DNA of 28,375 bases from Chloroflexota bacterium (GTDB lineage: Bacteria > Chloroflexota > UBA5177 > JANWHV01), in the NCBI GenBank assembly GCA_028287725.1, contig JAQBPC010000392.1:1-28375 (forward strand), written 5' to 3'. Positions 14,394 to 28,080 of the stretch are shown here, in pieces (position 1 is the stretch's first letter; every line of letters begins with the position of its first letter). Under the pieces are notes generated by a model. That model ran no database searches. It was given only the letters and a program-made list of their open reading frames with translations, and was not told the DNA's origin. The position numbers and the translations under genes are program-made.

Positions 14394-14945
14394 GTGGCAG
14401 CAGACTACTTTCTCCAATTCTCCAATCCGATAGGAGGCCCGGCCACTAAGATCCCGGCCGGGGAGTCAAAAGACGCAGCGCACGTCGGCTGGGTTGGGAT
14501 TTCTGATTTTTCGTTCGGAGAGACGAATCCGATAACTATAGGTTCGTCGTCTGGAGGCGCGGGCGCCGGAAAGGTCAAGTTCAACGAGTTTCAAATCACC
14601 AAAAGTGTCGACTCAACATCGCCCGCCCTATTTCAGCTGGCTGCCGCGGGTGCGCATATGCCGACTGTAGTGCTGGCGATCCGAAAGGCGGCCGGTGCTA
14701 CGGTTAGCCCAGCTGATTATCTGAAGTTTGAGTTCCACTTGGTGTTCGTGTCGAGCATCGCCTGGAGCGGCGGAGGAGGGGAGGCTCCGGTCGAGTCGGT
14801 TACGTTCGCCTATGGATCACTTGGCATGGCCTACCACACGCAGAGCAGTACCGGTGCACTCTCGGCGAGCCCATTGGTGGGGACATGGAGTCAGATAACC
14901 AACACGGCAACCGACCCGACCATTCCCTTTACGCACCTCACGTAG
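14394..14945 (+). CDS. hcp: Type VI secretion tube protein Hcp family (orphan)
   Basis: DYFL...GESKDAAHVGWV..SDFSFG...GGAGAGKVKF.EFQITKSVDSTSPALF...GAH...YLKFEFHLVFVSS...ESVTFAYG. AAGGAG at 14381-14386 before the GTG. Confidence 0.93.
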   Translation: MAADYFLQFSNPIGGPATKIPAGESKDAAHVGWVGISDFSFGETNPITIGSSSGGAGAGKVKFNEFQITKSVDSTSPALFQLAAAGAHMPTVVLAIRKAAGATVSPADYLKFEFHLVFVSSIAWSGGGGEAPVESVTFAYGSLGMAYHTQSSTGALSASPLVGTWSQITNTATDPTIPFTHLT

Positions 14946-14963: not shown

Positions 14964-15482
14964 ATGAGCAACCTGGAGCAGACAGTTGAGGCTCTGCGGC
15001 GCCGAGTCGAGTCACTAGAGGCAGAAAAGGCGGAGGCTGCACGCCCTGCCAGGGACCGGCTTTCCCCAGATCAGGGGGCTAGCCGGCGACAGATGCTGGT
15101 GGGCAGCGTCGGCGTGTTGGGAGCACTCGCCGGCGGCGCGCTGCTCGGCGGCATCGAGCCCGCCATGGCAGCATCCGCGGCGCCACAAGCCGCCGTGCAG
15201 AAGCACGAAATCTTGCAGATTGCATTGACACCGCTGAGAAGTAACGGCGTGCACTGGGCACGACACGAGTGGCACCTGGGCCCTCAATTCGCGGGAGTGC
15301 ATCTGCCTGCGGTCATTGCCACGGCAGCGGACGACTACATGGACCACGATGTCACTTCGACGTGCAGCTGTAGTGTCTTCGTGCAGGGCAAGCCGGGCGC
15401 CTACCATGCCGTGATCATGGTGCGCGGCATCCATGCACGTGCCGCCATCGTGCAAGTTCACGCCATAGCAGTCGCCGGCTGA
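14964..15482 (+). CDS. Hypothetical protein: N-terminal coiled coil, twin-arginine signal-like segment, His-rich putative lectin/fibre-tip beta domain
   Basis: Heptad L4-V8-L11-V15-L18; SRRQML at aa 40-45 followed by a hydrophobic stretch and AMA-A; GGAG RBS; starts 18 nt after the hcp stop. Confidence 0.8.
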   Translation: MSNLEQTVEALRRRVESLEAEKAEAARPARDRLSPDQGASRRQMLVGSVGVLGALAGGALLGGIEPAMAASAAPQAAVQKHEILQIALTPLRSNGVHWARHEWHLGPQFAGVHLPAVIATAADDYMDHDVTSTCSCSVFVQGKPGAYHAVIMVRGIHARAAIVQVHAIAVAG

Positions 15483-15559
15483 AGCTCACAACTCGCCGGC
15501 GACTGGGCTGATTGGCCGCCGGCCCAACGCTCAGCCTGACTGGAAGACAAGACCACGTC

Positions 15560-15693
15560 ACGCTTAACGATGCGCGACAAGCGCCTGCTCCGTTGAGGGG
15601 CTGTCCGCCAAGCGTAGGACAAAGCGGTGCAGGGTATATATTGGCCACGGGTAGCAACGTCTATTCCGTGGCCACCATGGCCTAAGGAAATCT
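15560..15693. repeat. Dispersed ~134-bp element, copy A
   Basis: Manual alignment to 26733-26865 gives 103/134 identities with one 1-nt indel. Shared blocks: CTGCTCCGTTG, GTCCGCCAAGCG, TTGGCCACGG, TGGCCACC. Confidence 0.85.
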
Positions 15694-16019
15694 GTACGGA
15701 CGTTCTGCGACTCCTAGCGGTTAGTGGCCACGATGCGGAACGGTTCTTGGCCACGTGCGGTGGTCGACTTCTCTGGATGCCAACACTACTTGAGATCAGG
15801 TGGACCTTTCCAAACCAGCATTTCCTGCCCACAGAGGCAAAAGCAGGCTTCCAGACAGCCACGGTGACAGCGTGATGTGCGAAGAGTCGCCCTGTTCGTG
15901 GCTGCATGGTAATGCGAATCCATGCATAGGCATTTGCTGAGAACAGCCGAGCTACGAGGGGCCGCTTAGCCCCCGTCGTGGCACTGAAGCGACCTCGTCC
16001 GTAATACTTGCGCCGCTAT

Positions 16020-16047
16020 CTCGATTGTTTCGCCTACAACAATCGAG
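16020..16047. repeat. Perfect 10-bp inverted repeat
   Basis: CTCGATTGTT (16020-16029) / AACAATCGAG (16038-16047), 8-nt spacer. Confidence 0.6.
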
Positions 16048-16223
16048 CGCTGCTCGCAGCACGTTGGCGCAGGACTGGTCGGGCTCATACAAGGAGGCCA
16101 GGTCGCGAAGCCGTGGTCTAACTGGACCAAGCCGATGCCTGGGCAAAGGGCATGTGGTGGCCAGCGCAAGCTTGGCGGAAGAGGGTTTGCGTCGATCAGG
16201 AAGTGCGCTGGTACATCCGAGGA

Positions 16224-16414
16224 TCAGCCGCCACCCCGGCATGCGTACAGCCCAAGGACGTACCCATGGCTCATGGCCGACTCCAGGCTGTCGACCTCCC
16301 AGACCTTACTGCGGCGGGAGACGGGGCCAACGGTGAACCAGAGCAGATCGCCCTTGCGATCGACGCTGACCAGAGCACGGGTACATCGTTCAGCCAGATG
16401 GTCAGGAATTCCAT
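16224..16414 (-). pseudogene. Small hypothetical gene with an apparent 1-nt frameshift near 16370
   Basis: MEFLTIWLNDVPVLW (from ATG 16414) has G/C-ending codons. The coding-like bias then moves to the frame VSVDRKGDLLWFTVGP...GGG*. Restoring one G (CTC TGG GTC) joins the two. Confidence 0.4.
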
Positions 16415-16465
16415 GGTTCGCGATGCTATGGCGATGCCGAGACACAACGCGCCGTGCCTCGCTCC

Positions 16466-16876
16466 TCAGTCAAATTGTCGTCCGTAGCTACCAGGATATG
16501 GCGCTTCCGCACTGTGTAGGCACTGCTCCACGGCAGCATAAGGTTCGTTCAGCTCGAAGGGCTATTGCAGGAACCCATCTGCTGGCAGTCCGCCTCCGAC
16601 TGTCAGATCGACGCCAACCTGCGCCGAGCAGACGATGACCTGGGCATGATGGCCATCTCGGCGTGAATAGCTGTCCAGAAATGTTCGACCGTCCATTCTC
16701 GGCATCTGCAGATCAAGCACGATAATGTCGAAGGTACTCGCGACCGCACGATCCAGGGCTGTGCACCCGTCGACCGCTTCCTCCACATGGAAGCCCGCCT
16801 CGGTGAGCGCGACGGTCAGGAGACAGCGGACCGTGGGGTCGTCGTCGACAACCAGGATGCGTCTGGCTTCGCTCAT
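16466..16876 (-). pseudogene. CheY-like response regulator receiver with an in-frame TAG at the conserved Lys
   Basis: RILVVDDD...IIVLDLQMPRMDG...VIVCSA...DGFLQ*PFELNE. The TAG at 16562-16564 sits where K of the KPF motif belongs; the frame continues to TGA at 16466. The frame is also open upstream to ATG 17221, so the start is uncertain. Confidence 0.85.
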
Positions 16877-17493
16877 GCTGCCCTCGGGTGCTGTTCTTGA
16901 CCCTTCACGCGTCGCAGCAATTCGCACATGGCGGCTCCACCATGGGTGGCCTGCGCGTTGCACCGCGCGACCTGGCCATCTGTCATACACTCCGCATAAG
17001 GGCGACCCAAGGACCAGAAGGGCAGCGCGATCGGCACCGGTGGGCTCGGCCACGAGCACTCGGTGGATGGTGAACGCCACGCACATCGGCCAGGAAACGT
17101 CGCGATCGATCTCGGCGAGGCGCAAGCACGTCTGCTCGCCGGCCCGAAGGAAGGTTTTCAGCGATGCCAAGCGTGCCGTTGGCAAGGTCCCCCGTGCAAC
17201 CGTGATCGTTCCCGCAGACATACGCTCTCGCTCTGGAAGGTCAACGCGTTGTCGCCCATCTCAGAGCGCTGCAAGACATCCATGATGTACTCCCATTTGT
17301 TCGCAGTTCCAGGCGGGTCAGGGTTGGTGCCAATGGCAATGCAGCGCAACGCGACGAGCAGACGACGGTTTCACGCGGCTTCCGCCGTCGCATCCTTCCC
17401 ATGACCACGTACGGCCACGCTTGACGCAATCTCCATATGCCGGTGATAGCCCGGCACCGCCGCGGCTCAACTCGAGAATCCTGCTTCACCCAC

Positions 17494-18354
17494 TTACCGT
17501 CCTGCAAGCCCGGTTGTCATCACTGCCGCTCTGATTCGGCGCTGAAAGATCACGTAGAAGATCAAGGGCGGAGTCGCGACCAGCGCCGCGGCTGCCATCA
17601 ATGGGCCCACGGACTGGCTGGGCGCAAAGTTCAGTGCGGTGATCTCGACCGGCGCCGTGAACTTATCGTCGCTGCTCAGCGCGATTAATGGCCAGAAGAA
17701 GTCGTTCCAGGACGCCAGCCAGGTCAGCACCGCGAGAGTCACCAGCGCATTCTTGACCATCGGCAAATCCACACTCCAGAAGATCCGCACAATGTTGGCG
17801 CCGTCCATGGCGGCCGCTTCCTCCAGCTCGACGGGAATCGCCTGAAAAAACTGGCGCAGCAGAAACACGCCAAAGGCGCCCGCGGCGGCAGGCCATATCA
17901 GGGCATTGTAGCTGTTCAAGAAATGCAGATCGCGCATGAGCAAGAAGATAGGGATAAGCGTGACCTGTACGGGAACCATCAGGCTCAGCAGGATGATCCC
18001 GAAAATGACATTCGTGCCCGGCAGGCGCAGACGCGTGAACCCGTAGGCTGCCAGCGCATCTACCGTCAGTACGGCGAGCGTGGATGCCGTGGCCACGAAC
18101 ACGCTATTGGCAAGCGATCGCAGGAGAGGGCTGTCCAGACCGGCTTGGAAGAACGGCCGATAGTTGTCGAGCGTCGGATGGGGTGGGATCCAATAGACCG
18201 GGATATGTTGTGAGTCCTGCGGTGAATTGAAGGAGACCGCCAGCATATATGCGAACGGTACAATGGTGACCACGGTCATCAGGGCGAGGAAAAGATAGCG
18301 CAGTACGTCGAATGCCGCGTGCGGGCGCAACCGGAGCGTGGCGCTGGATGCCAT
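17494..18354 (-). CDS. Carbohydrate ABC transporter permease (MalG-like)
   Basis: 6 TM pattern; EAA loop ELEEAAAMDGA; WNDFFWPLI. Confidence 0.95.
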   Translation of the reverse strand: MASSATLRLRPHAAFDVLRYLFLALMTVVTIVPFAYMLAVSFNSPQDSQHIPVYWIPPHPTLDNYRPFFQAGLDSPLLRSLANSVFVATASTLAVLTVDALAAYGFTRLRLPGTNVIFGIILLSLMVPVQVTLIPIFLLMRDLHFLNSYNALIWPAAAGAFGVFLLRQFFQAIPVELEEAAAMDGANIVRIFWSVDLPMVKNALVTLAVLTWLASWNDFFWPLIALSSDDKFTAPVEITALNFAPSQSVGPLMAAAALVATPPLIFYVIFQRRIRAAVMTTGLAGR

Positions 18355-18377
18355 GATTATCGATGCTCCCCTCCGTA

Positions 18378-19307
18378 CTACAGTTCGAAGCGCTGGCCCA
18401 ACAGTCTAAAGAGGGCGGCAGTAAATGCACCCATGAGGACGGCAAGGGCCACGGCGATGGCCGAGGCATAGCCAAGATCGTAGAATTGCCAGGCGTTCTG
18501 GTAGAGATACTGGACGATACTCAACGAGGAGTAGCCCGGCCCGCCGGAGGTCATGATGTAGTTCTGGGCGAAAACTTGAAGATGGGCAATGACCAGAATC
18601 ACAAGGACAAAGAGGAGAGTCGGCCGCAGCAGGGGAAGCGTGATTGAGAAGAACGATTGAATGGTCCCTGCGCCGTCGATATGGGCGGCATCATAGAGGT
18701 CGTTCGGGATGTTGTACAGCCCCGCCAGAAAGATGAGCATCGGGAAACCGAAACCCCACCACACGGAGACGAGTGAGAGCGTGGGAATGACGGTCGTAGT
18801 GTTCGCCAGGAAACTGAAATTGCCCAGGCCAAAGGGTCCAAGGTAATAGTTGAGGGAGCCCGTGCTAATCAACTGGGTCATAATCACGCCCATGACCGCC
18901 GCGGACAGGGTGACGGGCGCGTAAAATATGGACTGGAAGAAGCTGCGACCGAAGAACCTATCTCGCACGGCAAGCGCAACTAACAGCGCCAGCGTCGTCT
19001 CGATTGCCACAGTTAGGCCTGCGAAGTAGACGGTGTTCTTGAGCGCCGTCCAGAAGAGCGTGTCGTCGATCAGTCTTTTGTAGTTGTCGAGCCCGGTGAA
19101 CGGCTGGTGCGAGGCAAGAATCTCCCAGTGAAACAGACTCATGTAGAAGCCGTAGAGAATCGGCCCAATTGAAAACGCGCCGAAAAACAGGAGATACGGC
19201 GCTATGAAAGCATAGTGCGGTAGCCGTCGTACGGTACGCCGCCATCTGTCGTGCCCGCTCTCCTTACGCGCACCTTGTACGGCTATCAGACCGGTCTGCG
19301 CTGCCAT
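18378..19307 (-). CDS. Carbohydrate ABC transporter permease (MalF-like)
   Basis: EAA loop DLYDAAHIDGA; FFSITLPLLRP; YGFYMS...F.GLDNY. GGAGGAG precedes ATG 19307 (the track starts at 19334). Confidence 0.95.
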   Translation of the reverse strand: MAAQTGLIAVQGARKESGHDRWRRTVRRLPHYAFIAPYLLFFGAFSIGPILYGFYMSLFHWEILASHQPFTGLDNYKRLIDDTLFWTALKNTVYFAGLTVAIETTLALLVALAVRDRFFGRSFFQSIFYAPVTLSAAVMGVIMTQLISTGSLNYYLGPFGLGNFSFLANTTTVIPTLSLVSVWWGFGFPMLIFLAGLYNIPNDLYDAAHIDGAGTIQSFFSITLPLLRPTLLFVLVILVIAHLQVFAQNYIMTSGGPGYSSLSIVQYLYQNAWQFYDLGYASAIAVALAVLMGAFTAALFRLLGQRFEL

Positions 19308-19334
19308 TGCTCCTCCGTCCAGGGATTCCGGCAT

Positions 19335-19374
19335 GCCTGCCCCATTTCGCTCTTACGGGCGAAAGGGGGCAGGC
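19335..19374 (-). other. Intercistronic stem-loop between the binding-protein and permease genes
   Basis: GCCTGCCCC/GGGGCAGGC (9 bp) plus TTTCGC/GCGAAA (6 bp), one mismatch between them. Confidence 0.65.
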
Positions 19375-19389
19375 GGTGAGAGAAGGGTG

Positions 19390-20778
19390 TTAGCCTAGCG
19401 TCCGATTGATCAGCTGGGTAGCCTGCTGAAGGGCTGCCTTTGGCGAACTCGTCCCTGTAAGCGCCGCTCCCCAGGCGGCCATGTAATATGTCTGCTGCTG
19501 GTTGTAATTCGGGCTGTACCACTCCAGACGGCCGAAGTCGCGTTGCTCGCGGGACAGCACCCCGGTCCACCAATTGCTATTGATGGCAGGGAGCTTCTTA
19601 TGCGATGTACGCGCCGGAATATGCCCAGATTCCAGCGATCCCCACGATGCCTGATCGGAGAGGAACGCGATCAGTCGGGCCACGACCTGAGTGTTCTGAT
19701 CGCTGATTCCCGCCGGAATGGACATCACGTGCGCGGTCCACCACACGGCCTTCTGTTTCGATCCCCACTGCGGCAACGGATACAGCCGAGTGACTGGGTA
19801 GTTGAGGCTCTTGAACACCGTCTTGAAGTTGTTCAGCCACCAACTTCCCTCAACCACCATTGCCAAGCGGTTCGACGCATATAAGGGTCCGGTCGCAGGG
19901 ACGTAGATGTTAGAGATTGGCACATGCGTATGATACTTCGTCGCAAGATCGGTCCAGTATTGCAGCGAGGCAACCGATTCAGGCTGGTCGAGCAGGCACT
20001 TGGTGTGCGCGGCATTGGTAATGGCGCCGCCTGATTGCCAGAGGTTGGAGATCTCGCTGTGGAAATACCAACCCATCGACACGCCGTAGTTCTGGATATT
20101 CCGCGAATCGAAGCCAGCCTGATCGGGATGGCGTCCGTGACTGTCCGTGGTCAAGCGAATGGCCCACTCGGTGAAATCGGGGCCTGTCATCGGCGGCTTG
20201 TCGGGATTCAGGCCCGCCTTGCGCACCAAATCCGTATTCATCCAGAACCCGATGATAGGATTCCACAATGGAATGCCGTAGACCTTGTTCTGCCAGCTGC
20301 CGACCGCGAGCTCGCCGGCGCTGAAGTCATTCTTCGGCAACAAATTCTGGCCAAAGATGAGGGCGTCAAGCGGCTGCAGCATATTGCGTGCGGCGAACTG
20401 TGGCAAACCGTAGGCGTCGTTGACGATGAAGTCAGGGGGTGAGCCGGCCAGAATGGAGGTTGGCACCTTCTGGTAATACACGCCCCAGTCAAGCGTCTCG
20501 TGGTGGATCTTGACGTCAGGGTTCTTCCGCACGAAGAGCGCGAGCATCTTGGCGAAAATAGCGCCGTCCGCGCCGCCCAGTCCATCCCAGATCGTGATCG
20601 TCTTGGTGCCTTTGCCGAGGTTGCTAACCACGGGCGTAGGAGGCGGAGCCGCAGCGGCATGAGCCGCGCCCGCCTGGGAGAGAAGTGTGCCGGATGCCGC
20701 GGCGGCCGCGGCGCCGGCGCCGGCCTTCTTGAGGAGTTCTTTGCGATTGATCGTGCCGTGCAAGCTATCGGATAACAA
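19390..20778 (-). CDS. Extracellular sugar-binding protein (SBP family 1) with Tat-like signal
   Basis: TTG start with GAGAGGAG RBS; NRKELLKK then Ala-rich h-region and AHA-A; ITIWDGLGG, PPDFIV, GKVYG-like NKVYGIP, FWMNTDL..KAGL, LAMVVEGSW. Confidence 0.92.
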   Translation of the reverse strand: MLSDSLHGTINRKELLKKAGAGAAAAAASGTLLSQAGAAHAAAAPPPTPVVSNLGKGTKTITIWDGLGGADGAIFAKMLALFVRKNPDVKIHHETLDWGVYYQKVPTSILAGSPPDFIVNDAYGLPQFAARNMLQPLDALIFGQNLLPKNDFSAGELAVGSWQNKVYGIPLWNPIIGFWMNTDLVRKAGLNPDKPPMTGPDFTEWAIRLTTDSHGRHPDQAGFDSRNIQNYGVSMGWYFHSEISNLWQSGGAITNAAHTKCLLDQPESVASLQYWTDLATKYHTHVPISNIYVPATGPLYASNRLAMVVEGSWWLNNFKTVFKSLNYPVTRLYPLPQWGSKQKAVWWTAHVMSIPAGISDQNTQVVARLIAFLSDQASWGSLESGHIPARTSHKKLPAINSNWWTGVLSREQRDFGRLEWYSPNYNQQQTYYMAAWGAALTGTSSPKAALQQATQLINRTLG

Positions 20779-20917
20779 CGGTGTACTCCTCTCGCCTCAA
20801 AGCAGACACAGGGATTCCGGTGGTATGCCCTTCCTACTGAACGCCAATCAGCGCATAGGCTTGCTCCTGCTCCGTCGGCATCGTGCCAATTCTCAACATC
20901 ACGAATTGCAGCCGTAA

Positions 20918-20931
20918 TGACAGCGATATCA
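20918..20931. promoter_or_regulatory. LacI-family operator 1 (at the start site of the ABC operon promoter)
   Basis: TGACAGCGATATCA, a CG-centred quasi-palindrome; 13/14 identical to the site at 21172. Confidence 0.75.
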
Positions 20932-20939
20932 TGCACGCC

Positions 20940-20968
20940 ACAATAGCGCATGCATCGCTCCCTGTCAA
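20940..20968 (-). promoter_or_regulatory. sigma70-type promoter for the SBP/permease operon
   Basis: On the minus strand: TTGACA (20968-20963), 17 nt, TATTGT (20945-20940). Confidence 0.75.
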
Positions 20969-21133
20969 GCGGACACGTCCAGTTCGATCTCGCGGCGTAG
21001 ATCTTCACCGCCGAATACACAGGAGATATTATGCGTTAACGTATCTATAGGAACCATATTGGAAGATAACCATGCGCACGACCTCGCTGGCTAGGGGGCG
21101 GCGTGTGCAGGGCGCGCCGGGCCGGCATGAGCC

Positions 21134-21162
21134 TTGACGGATGTAAACCGTTGTGCTACCGT
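21134..21162 (+). promoter_or_regulatory. sigma70-type promoter for the GH2 operon
   Basis: TTGACG (21134-21139), 17 nt, TACCGT (21157-21162), with a TGn extended -10. Confidence 0.65.
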
Positions 21163-21171
21163 TGGCCTTGA

Positions 21172-21185
21172 TGACAGCGGTATCA
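21172..21185. promoter_or_regulatory. LacI-family operator 2 (just downstream of the GH2 promoter)
   Basis: TGACAGCGGTATCA. Confidence 0.75.
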
Positions 21186-21308
21186 CGTGCCCAATTCCAG
21201 GAAGTGGTGGCGCCACGCTGAGCCGCGCACCGCCGCATCCTGGCACACGGGAGGCGCGGTGCCGAGAGCCAGACAACGCAGGCTGGCTGAACCGGCACAA
21301 GGGACAAG

Positions 21309-23183
21309 ATGGAGTTGATGAGCATGCATGGAGTTGAACTGCCGTTGCACCCGCGACCGCAGCTCGCGCGCGATCAGTGGGTGAATCTCCGCGGCGCCTG
21401 GGACTTCGCTTACGACGACCACCGGTGCGGCCTAGACCAGGAGTGGCAAAATCGGCCTGACGTCTTCGACCGCGCCATCGTGGTACCCATCCCGCCCGAG
21501 TCGCCCGCCAGCGGCATCGGCGATACGGCGTTCCATCCAGTCGTGTGGTACCGGCGGACGTTCGCGGCTAGCCTGGACGAGAGCCGGCGCCTCCTCCTGC
21601 ACTTTGGCGCCGTCGACTACCGCGCCTCCGTCTGGGTCAACGGCCAACTGGTCGTGACGCACGAGGGGGGTCACACGCCCTTCTCCGCGGACATCACCAC
21701 CGCCCTGCGTGAGGATGGCGACCAGGTCCTGGTGGTGCGTGCCGAAGACGACCCGAGCGACCTCGGCCAGCCACGCGGCAAGCAGGATTGGCTTCCGGAG
21801 CCGCACCAGATCTGGTATCACCGCACCACGGGCATCTGGCAACCTGTCTGGCTCGAGTCGGTCTTGCGCGCGCACATTGTCGACGTGCGCTGGACGCCGG
21901 ACGTGCCCGGACGCAAGCTCGGCCTGGCCGTCGCCTTCAGTATAGCCGGCAACGCGTTGTTGCTTCGCGCCACGCTCCGCCTCGGCGACCGTATCCTGGT
22001 CGACGACATGTACTCCGTACATGGACTGGGTCTGCTGCGCGACATCACTCTCGAGCGCGCAATCGCCAGCCTGGACTCGGATCTGATCCTCTGGTCGCCC
22101 GAGCAGCCAAGCTTGATCGATGTGACGCTCACCCTGCTGCAGGGCGATCGTGTCCTCGACGGGGTGCGGAGCTATGCCGGACTGCGCAGCGTCTCAATCG
22201 CCGACGGCCGCTTCCTCCTCAACGGTCAGCCTCGTTTCCTTCGCATGGTCCTGGAGCAGGAATATTGGCCGGAGTCGCATCTCGCGGCGCCTGGCGACGA
22301 CGCCATCAGGCGAGAGGTCGCGCTCATCCGCGAGGCAGGATTTATCGGCGTACGGATTCACCAGAAGATCGAAGATCCCCGCTTCCTCTACTGGTGCGAT
22401 CGCCTGGGCGTGCTCGTCTGGGGAGAAATGCCTGTCGCCTACCTGTTTTCGCCCACCGCCGCGACCCGCACGGTGAAGGAGTGGATCGAAGCGCTCCACC
22501 GTGATTACAGTCACCCCAGCATTGTTGCCTGGGTGCCGTTCAATGAAAGCTGGGGCGTCGCCGAATTGCCGCAAAGCGCGGCGCAGCGGCACTTGGTGCG
22601 GACGCTGTACCACCTGACCACGGCCCTCGATTCCACGAGGCCCGTCATCGGCAACGACGGCTGGGAGCACGTGGTGGGGGACATCATCACCGTGCATGAC
22701 TATAGCTTCGACAGCTCCACGCTGCGGGCCCGCTATGGCACGCCGGAAGCGGTGGAGCGGACCCTTCACCAGATCCAGCCTCATGCCCATGCCATCGTAT
22801 TGGACGCCCAAAGTCGACGCGATCAGGCGATCATGGTGACCGAATACGGTGGCATAGGCTATCGGCCCGATCCTGCTGTACCCTGGTATGGATACGGCAC
22901 CGTCGCGGACCAGGGCACCTACCTTGCCAAGTATCGCGAGCTGGCCGAGGCACTCCTGGACTGCCCCTCGATCGCGGGCTTCTGCTACACCCAGCTTACG
23001 GATACACTGCAGGAAACCAACGGGCTGTTCACGGAAGCTCGCACGCCGAAGCTGGATCTGGCGCTCCTCCGGGCCGTCAACGCTCGCCCCTCTCTGGCGG
23101 TGCCGGGCGAAGTCATGGCGCGTATGCAGGATGTACGGGGAGAGGTTCCGTGGGTGCCCGTGAGCCCGATGCTGTCCAGCTGA
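21309..23183 (+). CDS. Glycoside hydrolase family 2
   Basis: WVNLRGAWDF; LLHFGAVDYRASVWVNGQ...HEGGHTPF; GIWQPVWLE; FLLNGQP; acid/base WVPFNESWG; nucleophile region VTEYGG; GFCYTQLTD..QETNGL. Confidence 0.95.
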   Translation: MELMSMHGVELPLHPRPQLARDQWVNLRGAWDFAYDDHRCGLDQEWQNRPDVFDRAIVVPIPPESPASGIGDTAFHPVVWYRRTFAASLDESRRLLLHFGAVDYRASVWVNGQLVVTHEGGHTPFSADITTALREDGDQVLVVRAEDDPSDLGQPRGKQDWLPEPHQIWYHRTTGIWQPVWLESVLRAHIVDVRWTPDVPGRKLGLAVAFSIAGNALLLRATLRLGDRILVDDMYSVHGLGLLRDITLERAIASLDSDLILWSPEQPSLIDVTLTLLQGDRVLDGVRSYAGLRSVSIADGRFLLNGQPRFLRMVLEQEYWPESHLAAPGDDAIRREVALIREAGFIGVRIHQKIEDPRFLYWCDRLGVLVWGEMPVAYLFSPTAATRTVKEWIEALHRDYSHPSIVAWVPFNESWGVAELPQSAAQRHLVRTLYHLTTALDSTRPVIGNDGWEHVVGDIITVHDYSFDSSTLRARYGTPEAVERTLHQIQPHAHAIVLDAQSRRDQAIMVTEYGGIGYRPDPAVPWYGYGTVADQGTYLAKYRELAEALLDCPSIAGFCYTQLTDTLQETNGLFTEARTPKLDLALLRAVNARPSLAVPGEVMARMQDVRGEVPWVPVSPMLSS

Positions 23184-23212
23184 GTTCGCGTAGGCGAGGA
23201 AGGTCACGAGCA

Positions 23213-24307
23213 GTGTCGGTCACTATTCGGGAGGTCGCGAACGCGGCCGGTGTATCGCAGAAGACGGTCTCGCGTGTCATCAATAACGAGCCTCGCGTGC
23301 TGGCGCCCACCCGTGATCGTGTGCTAGCCGTGATTAAGGACCTGGGTTTCCATCCCAATCCGCTGGCACGCGGGCTTGCCACCAAGCTGACCCGAAACCT
23401 TGGCCTCATTGTGCCCGACGTTGCCAACCCCTTCTTTGCACGCGGCATCGATGGCTGCGTGGCCGTGGCCGAGCAGCACGGCTATAATGTCTTCCTCGCC
23501 ACTAAAGGCAGCAGCCTGCAGCGGGAAGTACAGCATGTCCGCGCGCTGCTCGGCCAGCATGTTTCCGGTATCATTTGCTGGGTCAGCGGCATTCCTGACG
23601 TCGCGCTGGAAGAGCTCATGGACGGCGTGGCGCACCACTGCCCCATCGTCTTTGTCGACCGCCCGCCCGATCCGGAGCCGGCGCGCCACCTGGTGCACAC
23701 TGCCGTGCTGGTCGACCAGCGCTACGTAGGAGAGCTGGCGACCCAGCACCTGCTATCCGAGGGTCGGCGCGCCATCGCGTACATAGGTGCCACAGAGGCT
23801 GGTCTAAGCGGCTGGGTTCCGGCGCAACGGCGCGCAGGCTACCGCGATGCCCTGCGGTCGGAGGGCCTTGAGCCAGCCGAGCGCTGGGAGCGGCAGATGG
23901 GTTACGGCACTATTCGCGAGGGCATGATTGCGGCGTCGACGCTGCTTGCCCAGAGGCCCCGCCCCGATGCCTTTTTTGCCTACAACGACCTGCTGGCAGT
24001 GGGCGCGTTGCTGGCGTGCAAGCGCAAGGGTCTGCGGGTACCGGATGATATCGCCATTATCGGCGTCGACAACACGGAGTTGGCGACGGTGACGGATCCG
24101 CCGTTGAGCTCGATTCGTCTCCACCAGTTCCAGACCGGATCGCATGCTGTTGCCTTGCTTCTGAGTCTGCTCAAGGCCGCTACCCCGGAGGAGTCTGCGG
24201 CGCTCTCCGAAACGAGTCTGCCGTTGCCCGACTTGGTAGTGCGCGGATCGACCAGTCTGCGTTCCCTTGCTCTGCCATCGCTGGAAGATATCGACGGCCT
24301 GCCATGA
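23213..24307 (+). CDS. LacI-family transcriptional regulator
   Basis: TIREVANAAGVSQKTVSRVIN HTH; GFHPNPLARGL; AFFAYNDLLAVG; GLRVPDDIAIIGVD. GTG 23213 follows GAGGAAGG (the track starts at 23150). Confidence 0.95.
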   Translation: MSVTIREVANAAGVSQKTVSRVINNEPRVLAPTRDRVLAVIKDLGFHPNPLARGLATKLTRNLGLIVPDVANPFFARGIDGCVAVAEQHGYNVFLATKGSSLQREVQHVRALLGQHVSGIICWVSGIPDVALEELMDGVAHHCPIVFVDRPPDPEPARHLVHTAVLVDQRYVGELATQHLLSEGRRAIAYIGATEAGLSGWVPAQRRAGYRDALRSEGLEPAERWERQMGYGTIREGMIAASTLLAQRPRPDAFFAYNDLLAVGALLACKRKGLRVPDDIAIIGVDNTELATVTDPPLSSIRLHQFQTGSHAVALLLSLLKAATPEESAALSETSLPLPDLVVRGSTSLRSLALPSLEDIDGLP

Positions 24308-24356
24308 AGGCTGCCTGCTTCCGGCCCCGAACCACGCCTTGAAAGGCTGTGTGACG

Positions 24357-25385
24357 ATGAGTACGGCCGTACCGACCACCATGCGGGCGGGGCGTTTCCT
24401 CGGTGGGGGTCGCATTGCCCTTGAGAGCAGGCAAGTGCCCGCACCCGGCCCAGGCGAGGTGCTGGTGAGAGTCCATGCGTGTGCCACCTGCGGCAGCGAC
24501 CGGCCTGCCTGGGAACACGGCTCGAGCATAACGCCCGGCCACGAAGGCTCCGGTACCGTCGTGGCATGCGGCCCTGGCGCCACGCTTCCAATCGGTACGA
24601 GGGGAGCAATCTACCTCGTCGCGTACTGCGACGCCTGCCGCATGTGCCGGCGCGGTGAGACTGGAGCCTGCCTGCGAAAGGAGCGCATGATTGGCTTCAC
24701 GCACGACGGCGCGTATGCAGAGTACGTGGCTGTGCCAGAGAGATGTGTCCTGCCCATCGACCCTGAAATGGACCTCGACAACGCCAACATGCTGCTCGAC
24801 GTGCTCGGCACCACATTCCACGCGATCCGGCGTTCTCGGGTGGCGCCAGACCAGATCTTCGCTGCGTGCATTATGGGTGCCGGCCCTATCGGCCAGGGCG
24901 CAATTATCGCGCTCCGCGGGTTAGGAGTGTCCAACATCTATGCTGTCGATATCAACCCATTCCGGTTGGAGATGGCGACCAAGCTCGGCGCACTGGCAAT
25001 CGACGGTCGTGAAGGCAACGTCGTGCAGCGCATCCGAGCGGCGGTGCCAGATGGGCCCGACCTTGTGCTGGAAGCGACCGGGAATCAAGTGGCCCAGCGG
25101 CAAGCGATCGATATGGTTGCGGCCGATGCCCCGGTCGTCGTCGTGGGGCATTCGCCAAACCCATTCGAGGTCCGCTCGAGCGTCGACTTGATTGCTCAGG
25201 AGAAGTTGCTCATTGGTTCCGAGTATTTCGGCGTAGCGGAATACCCGGACAATCTCGCGATGCTCCGCATGGGACACGTCGATCCAATGCCCGTGATCAC
25301 CCATCGCATGCCGCTTGACCAGATTGAGGAAGCATTCAAGTTGTTCTGGTCGGGAGCGACCGGGAAAGTGCTGATCTATCCATGA
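24357..25385 (+). CDS. Zinc-dependent medium-chain dehydrogenase (sugar/polyol dehydrogenase-like)
   Basis: ATCGSD, GHEGSG, structural Zn CDACRMC...C, GAGPIG Rossmann motif. The start could be 24357 or 24381. Confidence 0.93.
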   Translation: MSTAVPTTMRAGRFLGGGRIALESRQVPAPGPGEVLVRVHACATCGSDRPAWEHGSSITPGHEGSGTVVACGPGATLPIGTRGAIYLVAYCDACRMCRRGETGACLRKERMIGFTHDGAYAEYVAVPERCVLPIDPEMDLDNANMLLDVLGTTFHAIRRSRVAPDQIFAACIMGAGPIGQGAIIALRGLGVSNIYAVDINPFRLEMATKLGALAIDGREGNVVQRIRAAVPDGPDLVLEATGNQVAQRQAIDMVAADAPVVVVGHSPNPFEVRSSVDLIAQEKLLIGSEYFGVAEYPDNLAMLRMGHVDPMPVITHRMPLDQIEEAFKLFWSGATGKVLIYP

Positions 25386-26398
25386 CCGTCTTGCCAACGA
25401 ATGCTCAGTTGCGTGTCGCGGTTATCGGCTACGGCGGGTGGGGCAAGGTTCATCTGGAGGCCTACCGCAGTAATCCGCTAACACAGCTGGCGGCCCTGTG
25501 TGGGCGCGATCCAGAGCGCGTTGCCAAGACGGCGACATGCTATAGTGCACACCCGTATACCAACATCGGCCAGATGCTAGAAGCGGAACGGCCCGATCTC
25601 GTGTCGGTAATTCTGCCGGACGCCAAACACTTCGAGCCGACATTGCAGGTACTCGAAGCGGGCATCCCTTGTTTCGCAGAGAAACCGCTCACCATGGACC
25701 TGGGTGAGGCTGAGCGCCTACTGGCAGTAGCGAAGCAGCGTGGCGTGCGTTTCGGCATCAACTTCAACCACCGATACAGCACGCCGTTTCAGCGCGCCAA
25801 GGCGTACGTGGACGGCGGCAAGCTTGGCAGACCAGCGTACTTCCTCTGGAAGTTCACGGGCGGCCACTTCCCCGAGGGCCAGCCCTCGCTGCAGCACCTG
25901 TTGTACATGCAGAGCCACGGCTTTGACATGCTGCGCTGGCTTGGCGGCCCGGTGCGCGAGGTCAGCGCGCTAGGTGCGGATCCTCGTGGTGAGGGATTGC
26001 TTACCACGGCCACCGTGTTGTTGTCTTTCGCAAGCGGCGCGGTGGGCACGCTGATCGCCAGTGTCGACGGCAGCTATGCCGACCCGCACAACCATGAATT
26101 CGAATGCCTTGGCCTGGGTGGCCGCATTCGTGTCACGGGCGTCCTGCGGCGCTTCGAATGGTCACCGCGCGCCTCACGCGAGGGAACCACCATCTGGGAA
26201 CCCGGATTTTTCGATGACCGCGCGCGCGATTTTGCGGCTACCACGGCGACGCATATCGACCGTTTCGTCAGGGCGCAGTTGGCGGGAGAGCCTGTGCCGG
26301 TGCCGGCCGAAGATGGACTCGAGGCTCTAAAGCTGGGCCTCGCTGCCATAGAGTCGGCGCAGACCGGCAGGCGCGTGCTCGTCGAGTCGTCGAGTTAA
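25382..26398 (+). CDS. Gfo/Idh/MocA family oxidoreductase
   Basis: VAVIGYGGWG..H; FAEKP; FNHRY; SHGFDMLRWLGG. ATGA overlap with the upstream gene. Confidence 0.93.
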   Translation: MTVLPTNAQLRVAVIGYGGWGKVHLEAYRSNPLTQLAALCGRDPERVAKTATCYSAHPYTNIGQMLEAERPDLVSVILPDAKHFEPTLQVLEAGIPCFAEKPLTMDLGEAERLLAVAKQRGVRFGINFNHRYSTPFQRAKAYVDGGKLGRPAYFLWKFTGGHFPEGQPSLQHLLYMQSHGFDMLRWLGGPVREVSALGADPRGEGLLTTATVLLSFASGAVGTLIASVDGSYADPHNHEFECLGLGGRIRVTGVLRRFEWSPRASREGTTIWEPGFFDDRARDFAATTATHIDRFVRAQLAGEPVPVPAEDGLEALKLGLAAIESAQTGRRVLVESSS

Positions 26399-26732
26399 CT
26401 CCGCTCCGCGGCCTTGATGGGAGCTCGGGGCCATTTAAATGGTGAAAATATCGACCCCCCTCCGGGCTGCGACGCCTGCCCTGCAGAATTGGACGGGTGC
26501 GCGATCCATCGGGACACGGGTATAGACAAAGCGTCATAGGTGCTCTCTCTCGCTGCCTGATCGCTCCACAACCAAGGCCAAGCAGTCACCCGCTTCGTCC
26601 GAAGAATGCACCGCTCGACTGTTGCCAGCCACTTCGACTTACCGAGAGATATGCGCCAATAGCTTGTTTCCAAGAAGACAGGCCAAACAGCTCAATAATC
26701 TCTCCAGCCTCATGGTTGTGGCCATTGCCGTA

Positions 26733-26865
26733 ACGCATAAAGTTGCACGACCGGCAACTGCTCCGTTGTGGAGACGTCCGCCAAGCGCACGACAAGCGAT
26801 GCAGAGTATAAGTTGGCCACGGCAAGAAACAACTATTACTTGGCCACCGTGGCCCTAGGGATTCT
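26733..26865. repeat. Dispersed ~134-bp element, copy B
   Basis: See copy A at 15560-15693; same orientation. Confidence 0.85.
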
Positions 26866-26945
26866 TTAGTGACAGCCAACGCCCCTCTGGTCTCTCCCGC
26901 GTACGGTGTATACTGACTTTTAGGACCAACAGTATTGCGAAGGTC

Positions 26946-27044
26946 CGCCGCTAGGGGTGCGCATGTGCGCTGAGAGGTGGCTTTAAGCCATCAACCCTCT
27001 GAACCTGATCCGGTTAGTACCGGCGAAGGGAAGCCGCAACGGCG
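26946..27044 (+). ncRNA. TPP (thi-box) riboswitch
   Basis: TAGGGGTGC...GCTGAGA...AACCCT..GAACCTGATCCGGTTAGTACCGGCGAAGGGAAG. Confidence 0.95.
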
Positions 27045-27054
27045 CTTAAAGGGA

Positions 27055-27143: not shown

Positions 27144-27287
27144 ATGGAGGACCCTCTCGCCGGTGCCGCTCCGGCGGCGTTCATGGGCTTGGAGCCATCT
27201 GTCGCCGACCGCGCAGCCGAGCCACTGCCAAGCCGAACACTGGCGGTTCACCGGGCCACACTGGAAAAGAGGCGGGACCGTGCATAG
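27144..27287 (+). CDS. Possible 47-aa ORF between the riboswitch and the ABC ATPase
   Basis: AAGGAG 9 nt upstream of ATG 27144; the stop overlaps the GTG of the ATPase by 8 nt. No recognisable family. Confidence 0.3.
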   Translation: MEDPLAGAAPAAFMGLEPSVADRAAEPLPSRTLAVHRATLEKRRDRA

Positions 27288-28080
27288 TCCGCTCGTCACC
27301 GTCGAACACGTAAGCCACGCCTTCGCGCGTGGCCGCGATCCCGCTATCCAGGCCTTGCAGGATGTGTCGTTTTCCGTGGAACAGGGCGAGTTCGTCAGCC
27401 TGGTCGGGCCCAGCGGTTGCGGGAAAAGCACCATGCTGCGACTGCTCGCCGGGCTGGATACGCCGTCATCCGGCTCCCTTCGGATCGAAGGTGCTACTCC
27501 AGGCCAACTGCTGGGCGCTGCCGGTTACATGCCGCAGCGCGACCTGCTGATGCCCTGGCGGAGCGTGCTCGATAACACCACCGTGGCCCTGGAGTTCGCC
27601 GGCGTCCCTCGCCAGGAGGCACGCGAGCGGGCCCGCGCCTTGCTGCCCATCTTTGGACTCGAGGGGTTCGAGCGAGCACACCCCGCGACGCTGTCCGGCG
27701 GTATGCGGCAGCGCGTCTCACTGCTCCGCACGGTGCTGGCCGGGCGGCGCCTGCTGCTGCTTGACGAGCCGTTCGGCGCCCTGGACGCAATCACCCGTAG
27801 CGACCTTCATGAGTGGCTCGCGGGCGTGCTGGCGAAGCTCGACGCCACGGTCATCTTGGTGACACACGATCTGGAGGAAGCCGCCTTCTTATCGGACCGT
27901 GTCTACGTGATGACCGATCGGCCCGGCCGCATCGCCGCCGCAATAGCGGTCCCCCTGCCTCGGCCCCGCTCGTACGAGCTCACCACCAGCCCTGCCTTCG
28001 GCGAGGTGCGGCGAGAGCTCATGACGGCACTGCGCGAGGCACGCCGTCCGCTCGCCACGGCCGCTAGGCTGGTGGGATGA
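27280..28080 (+). CDS. NitT/TauT-family ABC ATPase, probably ThiZ-like (thiamine precursor uptake)
   Basis: GPSGCGKST, LSGGMRQR, LLLLDEPFGALD, VTHD. GTG 27280 follows GAGG. The substrate is inferred from the TPP riboswitch. Confidence 0.92.
   Translation: MHSPLVTVEHVSHAFARGRDPAIQALQDVSFSVEQGEFVSLVGPSGCGKSTMLRLLAGLDTPSSGSLRIEGATPGQLLGAAGYMPQRDLLMPWRSVLDNTTVALEFAGVPRQEARERARALLPIFGLEGFERAHPATLSGGMRQRVSLLRTVLAGRRLLLLDEPFGALDAITRSDLHEWLAGVLAKLDATVILVTHDLEEAAFLSDRVYVMTDRPGRIAAAIAVPLPRPRSYELTTSPAFGEVRRELMTALREARRPLATAARLVG

Follow-up and report, generated by a model that had tools for sequence, protein, structure and literature searches.

The DNA discussed here, referred to as the window, is a stretch of 28,375 nt (positions 1 to 28,375 of contig JAQBPC010000392.1, assembly GCA_028287725.1) from an uncultured Chloroflexota bacterium (GTDB lineage Bacteria; Chloroflexota; UBA5177; JANWHV01), and it contains two similar intergenic segments, copy A and copy B, about 11 kb apart. 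Both are members of a low-copy family of noncoding DNA that is restricted to one genus and has a modular anatomy around an 83-nt core, here called P. In half of the independent copies P stands at a fixed distance from a −10 box, and the genes served by these boxes are unrelated. P is absent from the promoter that, in the relatives, is orthologous to the one next to copy B, which drives an operon led by a thiamine pyrophosphate (TPP) riboswitch. We put at about even the chance that the P family is a propagated promoter-upstream operator cassette, of the kind called putative mobile promoters (PMPs), rather than a transposon, a known RNA, or a gene fragment.

Two Copies of a Longer Element

The sequence-only reading of the window had described an unannotated element of about 134 bp present twice. 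Alignment confirmed the likeness, with 15555−15700 and 26729−26868 being 76.6% identical over 141 columns with one 1-nt indel (MAFFT; BLASTN E 6e-25). The exact blocks on which the claim had been built, CTGCTCCGTTG, GTCCGCCAAGCG, and TTGGCCACGG, all occur in the alignment of the two copies, and the spacing of the paired TGGCCAC motifs is 27 nt in both (15642/15669 in copy A and 26814/26841 in copy B). The minus-strand TATACC of copy A and TATACT of copy B are present as reported, each adjoining GTGGCCA. The contexts are indeed unrelated, copy A following the hcp unit and copy B preceding the TPP riboswitch, and both copies are, as had been claimed, without a transposase or terminal inverted repeats.

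The length had to be revised. Copy B is homologous across 26640−26880 to a copy in another genome of the same genus (G001:C15), so that the element measures about 240 nt and not 134, and copy A represents its right-hand 140 nt. The two homologs are 74.6% identical over 232 nt by BLASTN, and the nhmmer match covers positions 1−240. Beyond its well-aligned part, the tail of copy A gives a local alignment with the tail of G001:C15 that is better than all 2000 shuffles.

The source assembly (G000; 4.36 Mb in 718 contigs, approximately 84% complete) holds exactly two copies, A and B, as determined by nhmmer with all filters off. Chance does not account for the pair, and no curated family explains it. 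An Rfam match, an IS (insertion sequence) end, and a fragment of a known gene had been named beforehand as the outcomes that would count against the element, and none of them occurred.

A Genus-Restricted Family with a Conserved Core

The shared 83-nt core was turned into a sequence-only covariance model, R1, which was run against the source assembly and four other genomes of the same genus (G001 to G004). R1 matches twice in G000, about eight to nine times in G001, and about five times in G002, with zero copies in G003 or G004. Over 56 further Chloroflexota genomes it gave nothing better than E 0.001. No credible copy of P or of the element was found outside the genus, and viral contigs, plasmids, phages, and JGI metagenome contigs were all without a real match. 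In the JGI metagenomes, a pattern scan with the conserved block of the D1 arm (described below) returned 44 places; nhmmer found that only the pattern itself matches there, and these are accordingly chance matches. A scan of GTDB genome contigs with the P pattern returned the known G002 copy, one chance match, and nothing else.

On the minus strand of the window, the consensus of P reads CACTACAG, 9 nt, CTGGCCACGGTGGCCAAGG, AATAGTTGTTTTC, CCGTGGCCAGA, and then tTATaCTCTG. The core therefore contains the CACTACAG block, a palindrome of the form GGCCAC-N-GTGGCC (box 1), a GTGGCCA box (box 2), and a TATACT-like box, with boxes 1 and 2 separated, center to center, by about 31 nt, or three helical turns. 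In an alignment of 14 P copies from three species (A10), the most conserved columns are 19−34, which correspond to the 13-bp palindrome and the adjoining AAG; the arms flanking the core are kept less well. The seven best copies have TAT.C. as their −10-like box. A search of G000 for a wider regulon of the TGGCCA/TATAC motif found none, and literature searches for the motif and for intergenic repeats of Chloroflexi returned no papers.

Mosaic Organization and Genomic Contexts

All-against-all BLAST of the oriented copies resolved the family into parts. P, 83 nt long, is the part found in all copies. After the TATACT-like box comes either an arm of about 150 nt, D1 (in copy B, in G001:C15, and, for its start only, in copy A), or an alternative arm of about 115 nt in the same place, D2 (in G002:C1, G002:C11, G001:C10b, and G001:C18a); both D1 and D2 end in GGGCGCA. 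On the other side of P, an extra module of about 78 nt, U, is present in G002:C1, G002:C11, and G001:C10a. There are also incomplete versions. G001:C9 retains the left part only, that is, D1 without P and with its frame shifted, and G001:C12 and G002:C7 are truncated to the 5′ part of P. At two places in G002 there is a stretch with TGGCCAC boxes only, followed by a different conserved sequence. One of the G002 copies is situated at the end of a contig.

The DNA flanking the copies is unrelated from one copy to the next and does not align. Within the element, D1 shows 75% identity between species across about 150 nt and D2 70−90% across about 115 nt, whereas ordinary intergenic DNA is unalignable. 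The highest value is that of U plus P in G001:C10a and G002:C1, which are 90% identical over 157 nt, compared with 72−78% for the orthologous genes there. Such identity across species suggests either a recent exchange or a very strong constraint. This pair is located at about 5042−5117 of G001:C10 and about 38944−39023 of G002:C1. Further pairs are copy B and G002:C1 (81% over 54 nt) and G001:C10b and G001:C18a (85% over 175 nt).

On the P side the genes share no homology with one another and include an ATP-binding cassette (ABC) transporter behind the TPP riboswitch, an aminotransferase, an SH3 protein, a GT4 glycosyltransferase, CofD, an M48 peptidase, a pyrroloquinoline quinone (PQQ) propeller protein, and a pro-kumamolisin. 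Several copies in G001 and G002 lie 100−190 nt from the start codon, and on that side of copy A there is no gene. The G001 orthologs of the neighbors of copy B, a MocA-type oxidoreductase and the TPP-ABC operon, are 26 kb apart, and there is no element beside either.

Some features of these surroundings are recorded in their own right. The oxidoreductase gene and the TPP-ABC operon are adjacent in the window (25400−28300), unlike in G001:C12, and in each of the four genomes compared synteny breaks off immediately upstream of the TPP promoter. Both U-P-D2 copies of G002 (C11, from about 300; C1, L130:2185−2586) have toxin-antitoxin-like genes 300−600 nt past D2. One of these genes encodes a PIN-domain (VapC-like) protein; the other looks HEPN-like by eye, at the N-terminus only, and Pfam scans of it gave neither a HEPN nor a nucleotidyltransferase match.

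Fixed Phase between P and Neighboring −10 Boxes

A hexamer of the form TAnnnT starts 36−41 nt outward of P column 1 in 6 of 12 independent copies. The background of this pattern in the flanks is 0.0056 per position, and none of 5000 circular-shift permutations gave six sequences in any 6-nt window. No comparable TAnnnT peak was found on the D side of P. The phased box reads TATACT in copy B, G001:C18a, and G001:C12, TACAAT in G002:C7, TACACT in G002:C8a, and TACGCT in G002:C1. A gene starts after each of the six boxes, these being the TPP-ABC operon and the genes for a signal-peptide SH3 protein, a GT4 glycosyltransferase, CofD, a PQQ-propeller protein, and an unnamed protein. A Shine-Dalgarno sequence is readable before four of the six starts, the exceptions being the gene at G002:C1 and the riboswitch-led ABC gene. 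The −35 positions are weak except in the subfamily carrying module U, which has TTGACG-17-TACGCT at the same distance from P.

The promoter next to copy B offers a comparison between species. G001, G002, and G003 all have TATACT at the corresponding position ahead of the riboswitch, with the upstream sequence unalignable and P absent. This comparison indicates that the outward −10 box of copy B is ancestral and that P was placed upstream of it in this species only. With transcription predicted to start about 13 nt after the beginning of the −10 box, P would extend from about −49 to −131, with the center of the palindrome at about −73 and the second GTGGCCA at about −104. The palindrome of P is a dyad-symmetric site that is better kept than its surroundings and has a fixed position with respect to core promoters, as is characteristic of transcription-factor operators or upstream activating sites.

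A Proposed Operator Cassette Copied Upstream of Existing Promoters

Weak −35 elements together with an upstream site are typical of promoters that depend on an activator (class I) or are controlled by an operator. P may be such a control region, lying upstream of σ70-type −10 boxes that belong to unrelated genes and have weak −35 elements. The palindrome, the second GTGGCCA box, and the CACTACAG block would be the binding sites of one putative dimeric DNA-binding regulator, and the family would have spread by duplication or transfer into unrelated intergenic places. What we infer here is the binding of a protein, the direction and sign of the regulation, and the route of spread. The target of copy B would be the TPP-riboswitch/ABC-transporter operon on the plus strand, with P inserted upstream of a pre-existing −10 box. 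On the other side of P, the TATACT-like box faces D1 or D2, and each arm might give rise to a short divergent transcript. Having neither a phased outward −10 box nor a gene on that side, copy A is most likely an orphan relic.

Among the three interpretations put forward by the sequence-only reading (mobile remnant, small RNA, and portable promoter/operator module), the last one fits best, given the fixed distance of the core upstream of the −10 boxes of unrelated genes and its being the best-kept part over 14 copies and three species.

Several observations weigh against the operator cassette. Half of the independent copies (6 of 12, copy A included) lack a phased −10 box, and the presence of a gene start on the P side in 9 of 13 cases is not significant alone. 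No regulator gene is consistently linked to the copies among the flanking genes examined. The sharing of 80−240 contiguous nt, D arms included, is not accounted for by a plain regulon and calls for DNA copying, and the D1 and D2 arms have no role in the operator model beyond a possible divergent transcript. The spacer of the palindrome is also too short for any operator type that we can name. Lastly, a contig from a soil metatranscriptome, which matches the riboswitch region with one mismatch, ends at 26897, that is, 24 nt upstream of the predicted TPP start, a position for which the operator model does not account.

This contig end is upstream of the TATACT at the copy B promoter and may be due to a start site farther upstream, to read-through, or to DNA present in the library. 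Contigs of the same metatranscriptome cover 26897−27047 and parts of the sugar operon of the window, and neither copy of the element. They derive from one small soil library, of the same study as the best DNA holder, and show neither strand nor ends, so that their coverage does not bear on the element.

A Functionless Mobile Remnant?

The same copies could be a decaying nonautonomous mobile element, or DNA that recombined illegitimately or site-specifically, with no function, in which case the −10 phasing would reflect an insertion preference for DNA upstream of promoters. The mosaic and often truncated state of the copies (G001:C12, G002:C7, and G001:C9), their nonsyntenic sites, and the position of copy A in a gene-free stretch of 1.08 kb beside another dispersed repeat are in line with this explanation, and the cross-species pair with 90% identity suggests recent movement. 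Yet no terminal inverted repeats join the ends of copy B, copy A, or G002:C1, and domain scans of the flanking open reading frames (ORFs) revealed no transposase or integrase next to any copy. IS-rich plasmid and phage collections and viral contigs gave no match, the Y1 transposases of G000 are flanked by a different repeat, and the copy number is low. In addition, the palindrome is far better kept than the flanks over three species, which argues for selection on it. The mobile-remnant option of the sequence-only reading stands as far as nonsyntenic, truncated, or mosaic copies go, with the hallmarks of a transposable element missing, and we regard a functionless remnant as unlikely.

A related idea is that copies A and B are attachment sites, in the form of direct repeats, around the 11-kb sugar-utilization segment. 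It was rejected, as there is neither a long identical core nor an integrase. Integron attC, parS, retron, and omega-RNA were rejected as well, the defining partner gene or motif being missing.

The gene-free stretch that contains copy A extends over 15483−16561 (about 1.08 kb, from the Hcp partner gene to a response-regulator gene), and none of its frames shows coding-type GC by codon position. It holds copy A, a second dispersed noncoding element named E2, extra TGGCCAC boxes at 15724 and 15750, and about 600 nt of unexplained DNA. E2 (15706−15950) lies directly beside copy A and is present once in G000. It has three copies in G001 (C15:34949−35184, C12:993353−993502, and C14:185832−185916), with 72−77% identity, all of them between convergent genes. 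Its core, GAGATCAGGTGGACCTTTCCAAACC, is almost invariant, and E2 has neither coding periodicity nor an Rfam match.

A Minus-Strand Small Transcript or Small Protein?

P could instead be the promoter of an autonomous minus-strand unit. Transcription from the TATACT-like box would then yield either a small RNA (sRNA) of 115−160 nt from D1 or D2 or a D1 protein of 52−69 aa starting at a conserved TTG, copies A and B would be paralogous small genes, and the plus-strand neighbors would be incidental. The arms begin right after the TAT.C. box that the seven best copies keep, and D1 (75% between species) and D2 (70−90%) are conserved, unlike ordinary intergenic DNA. In G001:C9, the GGGCGCA arm end runs into a perfect hairpin followed by TTTCT. 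As for the protein, the D1 frame is open in all three D1 copies, its dN/dS against the G001 copy is 0.39, the lowest of the open frames, the sole 1-nt indel between A and B falls shortly before the TTG, and the 42-nt deletion of copy A is in frame.

The promoter itself is less convincing: the −10 box is less conserved than the palindrome, and the minus-strand TATACT fails a strict σ70 promoter scan, which came back empty, because its −35 element is weak. No U-tract terminators were found, and both arms are without covariation on both strands. D2 lacks a conserved ORF, and the D1 ORF has a codon-position GC of 0.49/0.60/0.54, compared with about 0.7/0.5/0.75 in real genes here. The start signal is poor: with the TTG only 2−5 nt from the predicted start site, the mRNA would be near-leaderless, with UUG as its start codon. 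A 97-aa minus-strand ORF has no homolog among 5.8 billion protein clusters, and overlapping ORFs gave no Pfam match at E up to 10. A minus-strand unit also leaves the phased outward −10 boxes unexplained. We consider this alternative possible but doubtful as a full account of the family; a minus-strand unit is nonetheless compatible with P acting as a divergent control region.

A Plus-Strand RNA or Peptide?

The last alternative places the function in an RNA of the plus strand, either a structured leader or 3′ element based on the hairpin GGCCACGG/CCGTGGCC or a stalling micropeptide rich in W and P (..WPR..WPPWP). The consensus can form a 10-bp stem, in which 79% of the cells pair, and roughly half of the copies have the WP frame open across P. 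When the columns were shuffled, though, the observed pairing was reached in 4 of 500 alignments and the observed covariation score in 64 of 500, so that neither value stands clearly above the controls. The stem is not followed by a U-tract, and the folding z-scores of single copies are unremarkable (−0.5 to −2.0). The WP frame is interrupted by internal stops in G001:C12, C10b, and C16 and by a frameshift in C10a, and the D2-type copies have a stop four codons before the first W and no start codon after it.

No Rfam family matches either. At the gathering threshold, the TPP riboswitch is the only Rfam hit in the window; for the two copies, at E up to 10, there is only a 15-bit chance match to mir-132, and the scan of the G001 copy returned nothing. 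The RNAalifold covariation terms of D1, D2, and P are positive or about zero on both strands, with sets of 3−14 sequences that confer low power. Of the sRNA interpretation offered by the sequence-only reading, covariation is thus the part that was not seen. The lack of RNA covariation in the stems fits recognition by a protein at the level of the DNA sequence. For the family as a whole, the plus-strand RNA or peptide is largely refuted, and we judge it very improbable.

Promoters of the σ54 and ECF (extracytoplasmic function) types were also considered, by eye, and rejected, as neither the spacing nor the conservation fits.

Comparison with Known Repeats

The propagated operator cassette that we favor finds its closest counterpart in the PMPs. 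These are described as homologous noncoding stretches of 50−100 nt or more that occur upstream of nonhomologous genes, within or between genomes; most have no known IS or Rfam match, their route of movement is unexplained, and some are common to several taxa (PMC3575422). By definition, they are at least 80% identical over at least 50 nt and lie within −150 to −50 of the start codon (Matus-Garcia, Nijveen, van Passel, NAR 2012, summarized in PMC3575422). In the P family, such identity is reached by some pairs, namely G001:C10a with G002:C1, copy B with G002:C1, and G001:C10b with G001:C18a. The P family is likewise noncoding, located upstream of nonhomologous genes, and devoid of an IS or Rfam match. 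It differs from the PMPs as defined in that summary in that copies A and B are only 77% identical and copy B is outside −150 to −50. Moreover, what the members of the P family share precedes the core promoter, at about −49 to −131, and is in fixed phase with the −10 box, and phase is not among the properties that the PMP survey, as summarized there, examined.

The modules of the BOX element (boxA, boxB, and boxC) resemble the U, P, D1, and D2 build of the P family. Correia, ERIC, and BOX elements have terminal inverted repeats or long imperfect palindromes and occur in tens to hundreds of copies, with target-site duplications in the case of Correia. The P family, in contrast, has no terminal inverted repeats and 2−9 copies per genome. 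What it has in common with Correia (Neisseria), ERIC, and BOX (Streptococcus pneumoniae) is that these are dispersed intergenic repeats of 100−250 nt that can bring promoters or regulatory sites to neighboring genes (see also PMC3575422).

Another point of reference is the REP/REPIN repeats, which are intergenic and bear palindromes, with their RAYT partners; each of the five genomes of the genus carries Y1 transposase genes. P differs from them because it is longer, does not occur in inverted doublets, and is unlike the repeat that flanks the Y1 genes of G000. These Y1 (IS200/RAYT-like) genes, C183:2132−2488 and C613:2365−2721, are each flanked by inverted REP-like repeats; the flanking hairpin, CCACGCCG-TTTA-CGGCGTGG, occurs about 15 times in the assembly and not in the window. 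nhmmer searches with P on contigs C183 and C613 gave no match.

Finally, families of paralogous sRNAs may share regulated promoters, as do Qrr1−4, PrrF1/2, and OmrA/B. The P family is similar in its low copy number and in having a conserved upstream region with regulator sites followed by a short conserved part, here putatively transcribed. It differs in having neither a terminator nor covariation, in that one promoter module is shared by two unrelated, alternative arms, and in that the other side of several P copies is phased to the promoters of protein genes. On balance, the family is best filed under a known, loosely defined kind, that of propagated promoter-region repeats, and what is new is that its palindromic core keeps a fixed phase to the neighboring −10 boxes.

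Features of the Window

The features that make up the two copies and their neighborhood are collected in Table 1. The gap between copy B and the TPP riboswitch is 70 nt. Copy B is about 290−370 nt from the ABC start codon, a long distance that is due to the intervening riboswitch leader.

Table 1. Coordinates of the Two Copies, Their Parts, and Neighboring Features in the Window
Feature	Position	Strand	Basis and remarks
Copy B core P, 83 nt	26790..26872	−	Best match of covariance model R1, 79.9 bits, E 7e-24; column 1 = 26872
Copy A core P	15617..15700	−	R1, 72.4 bits, E 1.5e-21; column 1 = 15700
Copy B arm D1, ~150 nt	26640..26789	−	Common to G001:C15, partly to copy A and G001:C9
Copy A start of D1, ~60 nt	15555..15616	−	Alignment; weak remnant on to ~15520 past a 42-nt deletion
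Box 1 palindrome of copy B, GGCCAC-C-GTGGCC	26842..26854		Pattern scan; in copy A, GGCCATGGTGGCC at 15670-15682
Box 2 of copy B, CCGTGGCCAA on the minus strand	26813..26822		A10 columns 51-60; copy A, 15641-15650
−10-like TATACT facing D1	26805..26810	−	Sequence; in copy A, TATACC at 15633-15638
Outward −10 TATACT of the TPP-riboswitch operon	26909..26914	+	Start 37 nt past the P edge
TPP riboswitch heading the ABC-transporter operon, outward of copy B	26943..27048	+	Rfam RF00059, 74.4 bits
ABC_tran	27163-28080		Start codon at 27163
Candidate D1 small ORF, TTG start, 69 aa	26586..26795	−	Weakly supported; counterpart in copy A, 15458-15622, 54 aa
Hcp gene	14394-14945		PF05638; partner gene, 14964-15482, precedes copy A

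Implications

The most extended version of the operator model, which we regard as quite unlikely, is that of a self-propagating regulatory cassette. An 83-nt operator for a lineage-specific regulator would have been copied, in fixed phase, upstream of existing −10 boxes, thereby joining unrelated genes, among them a thiamine-related transporter under riboswitch control, in one regulon, and it would have seeded a divergent gene for a small RNA or small protein (D1/D2) at each site.

The immediate impact is modest, for this is a small family in one genus with a function that we infer. For annotation, two long "empty" intergenic regions of the window find an explanation. If the operator reading is correct, GGCCAC-N-GTGGCC together with GTGGCCA would be a defined DNA bait for finding the regulator, and the operon behind the TPP riboswitch would have a second layer of control ahead of it, in one species only. 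The family would then represent a concrete and testable case of regulatory rewiring by the propagation of promoter regions in a poorly studied, uncultured soil lineage of the Chloroflexota.

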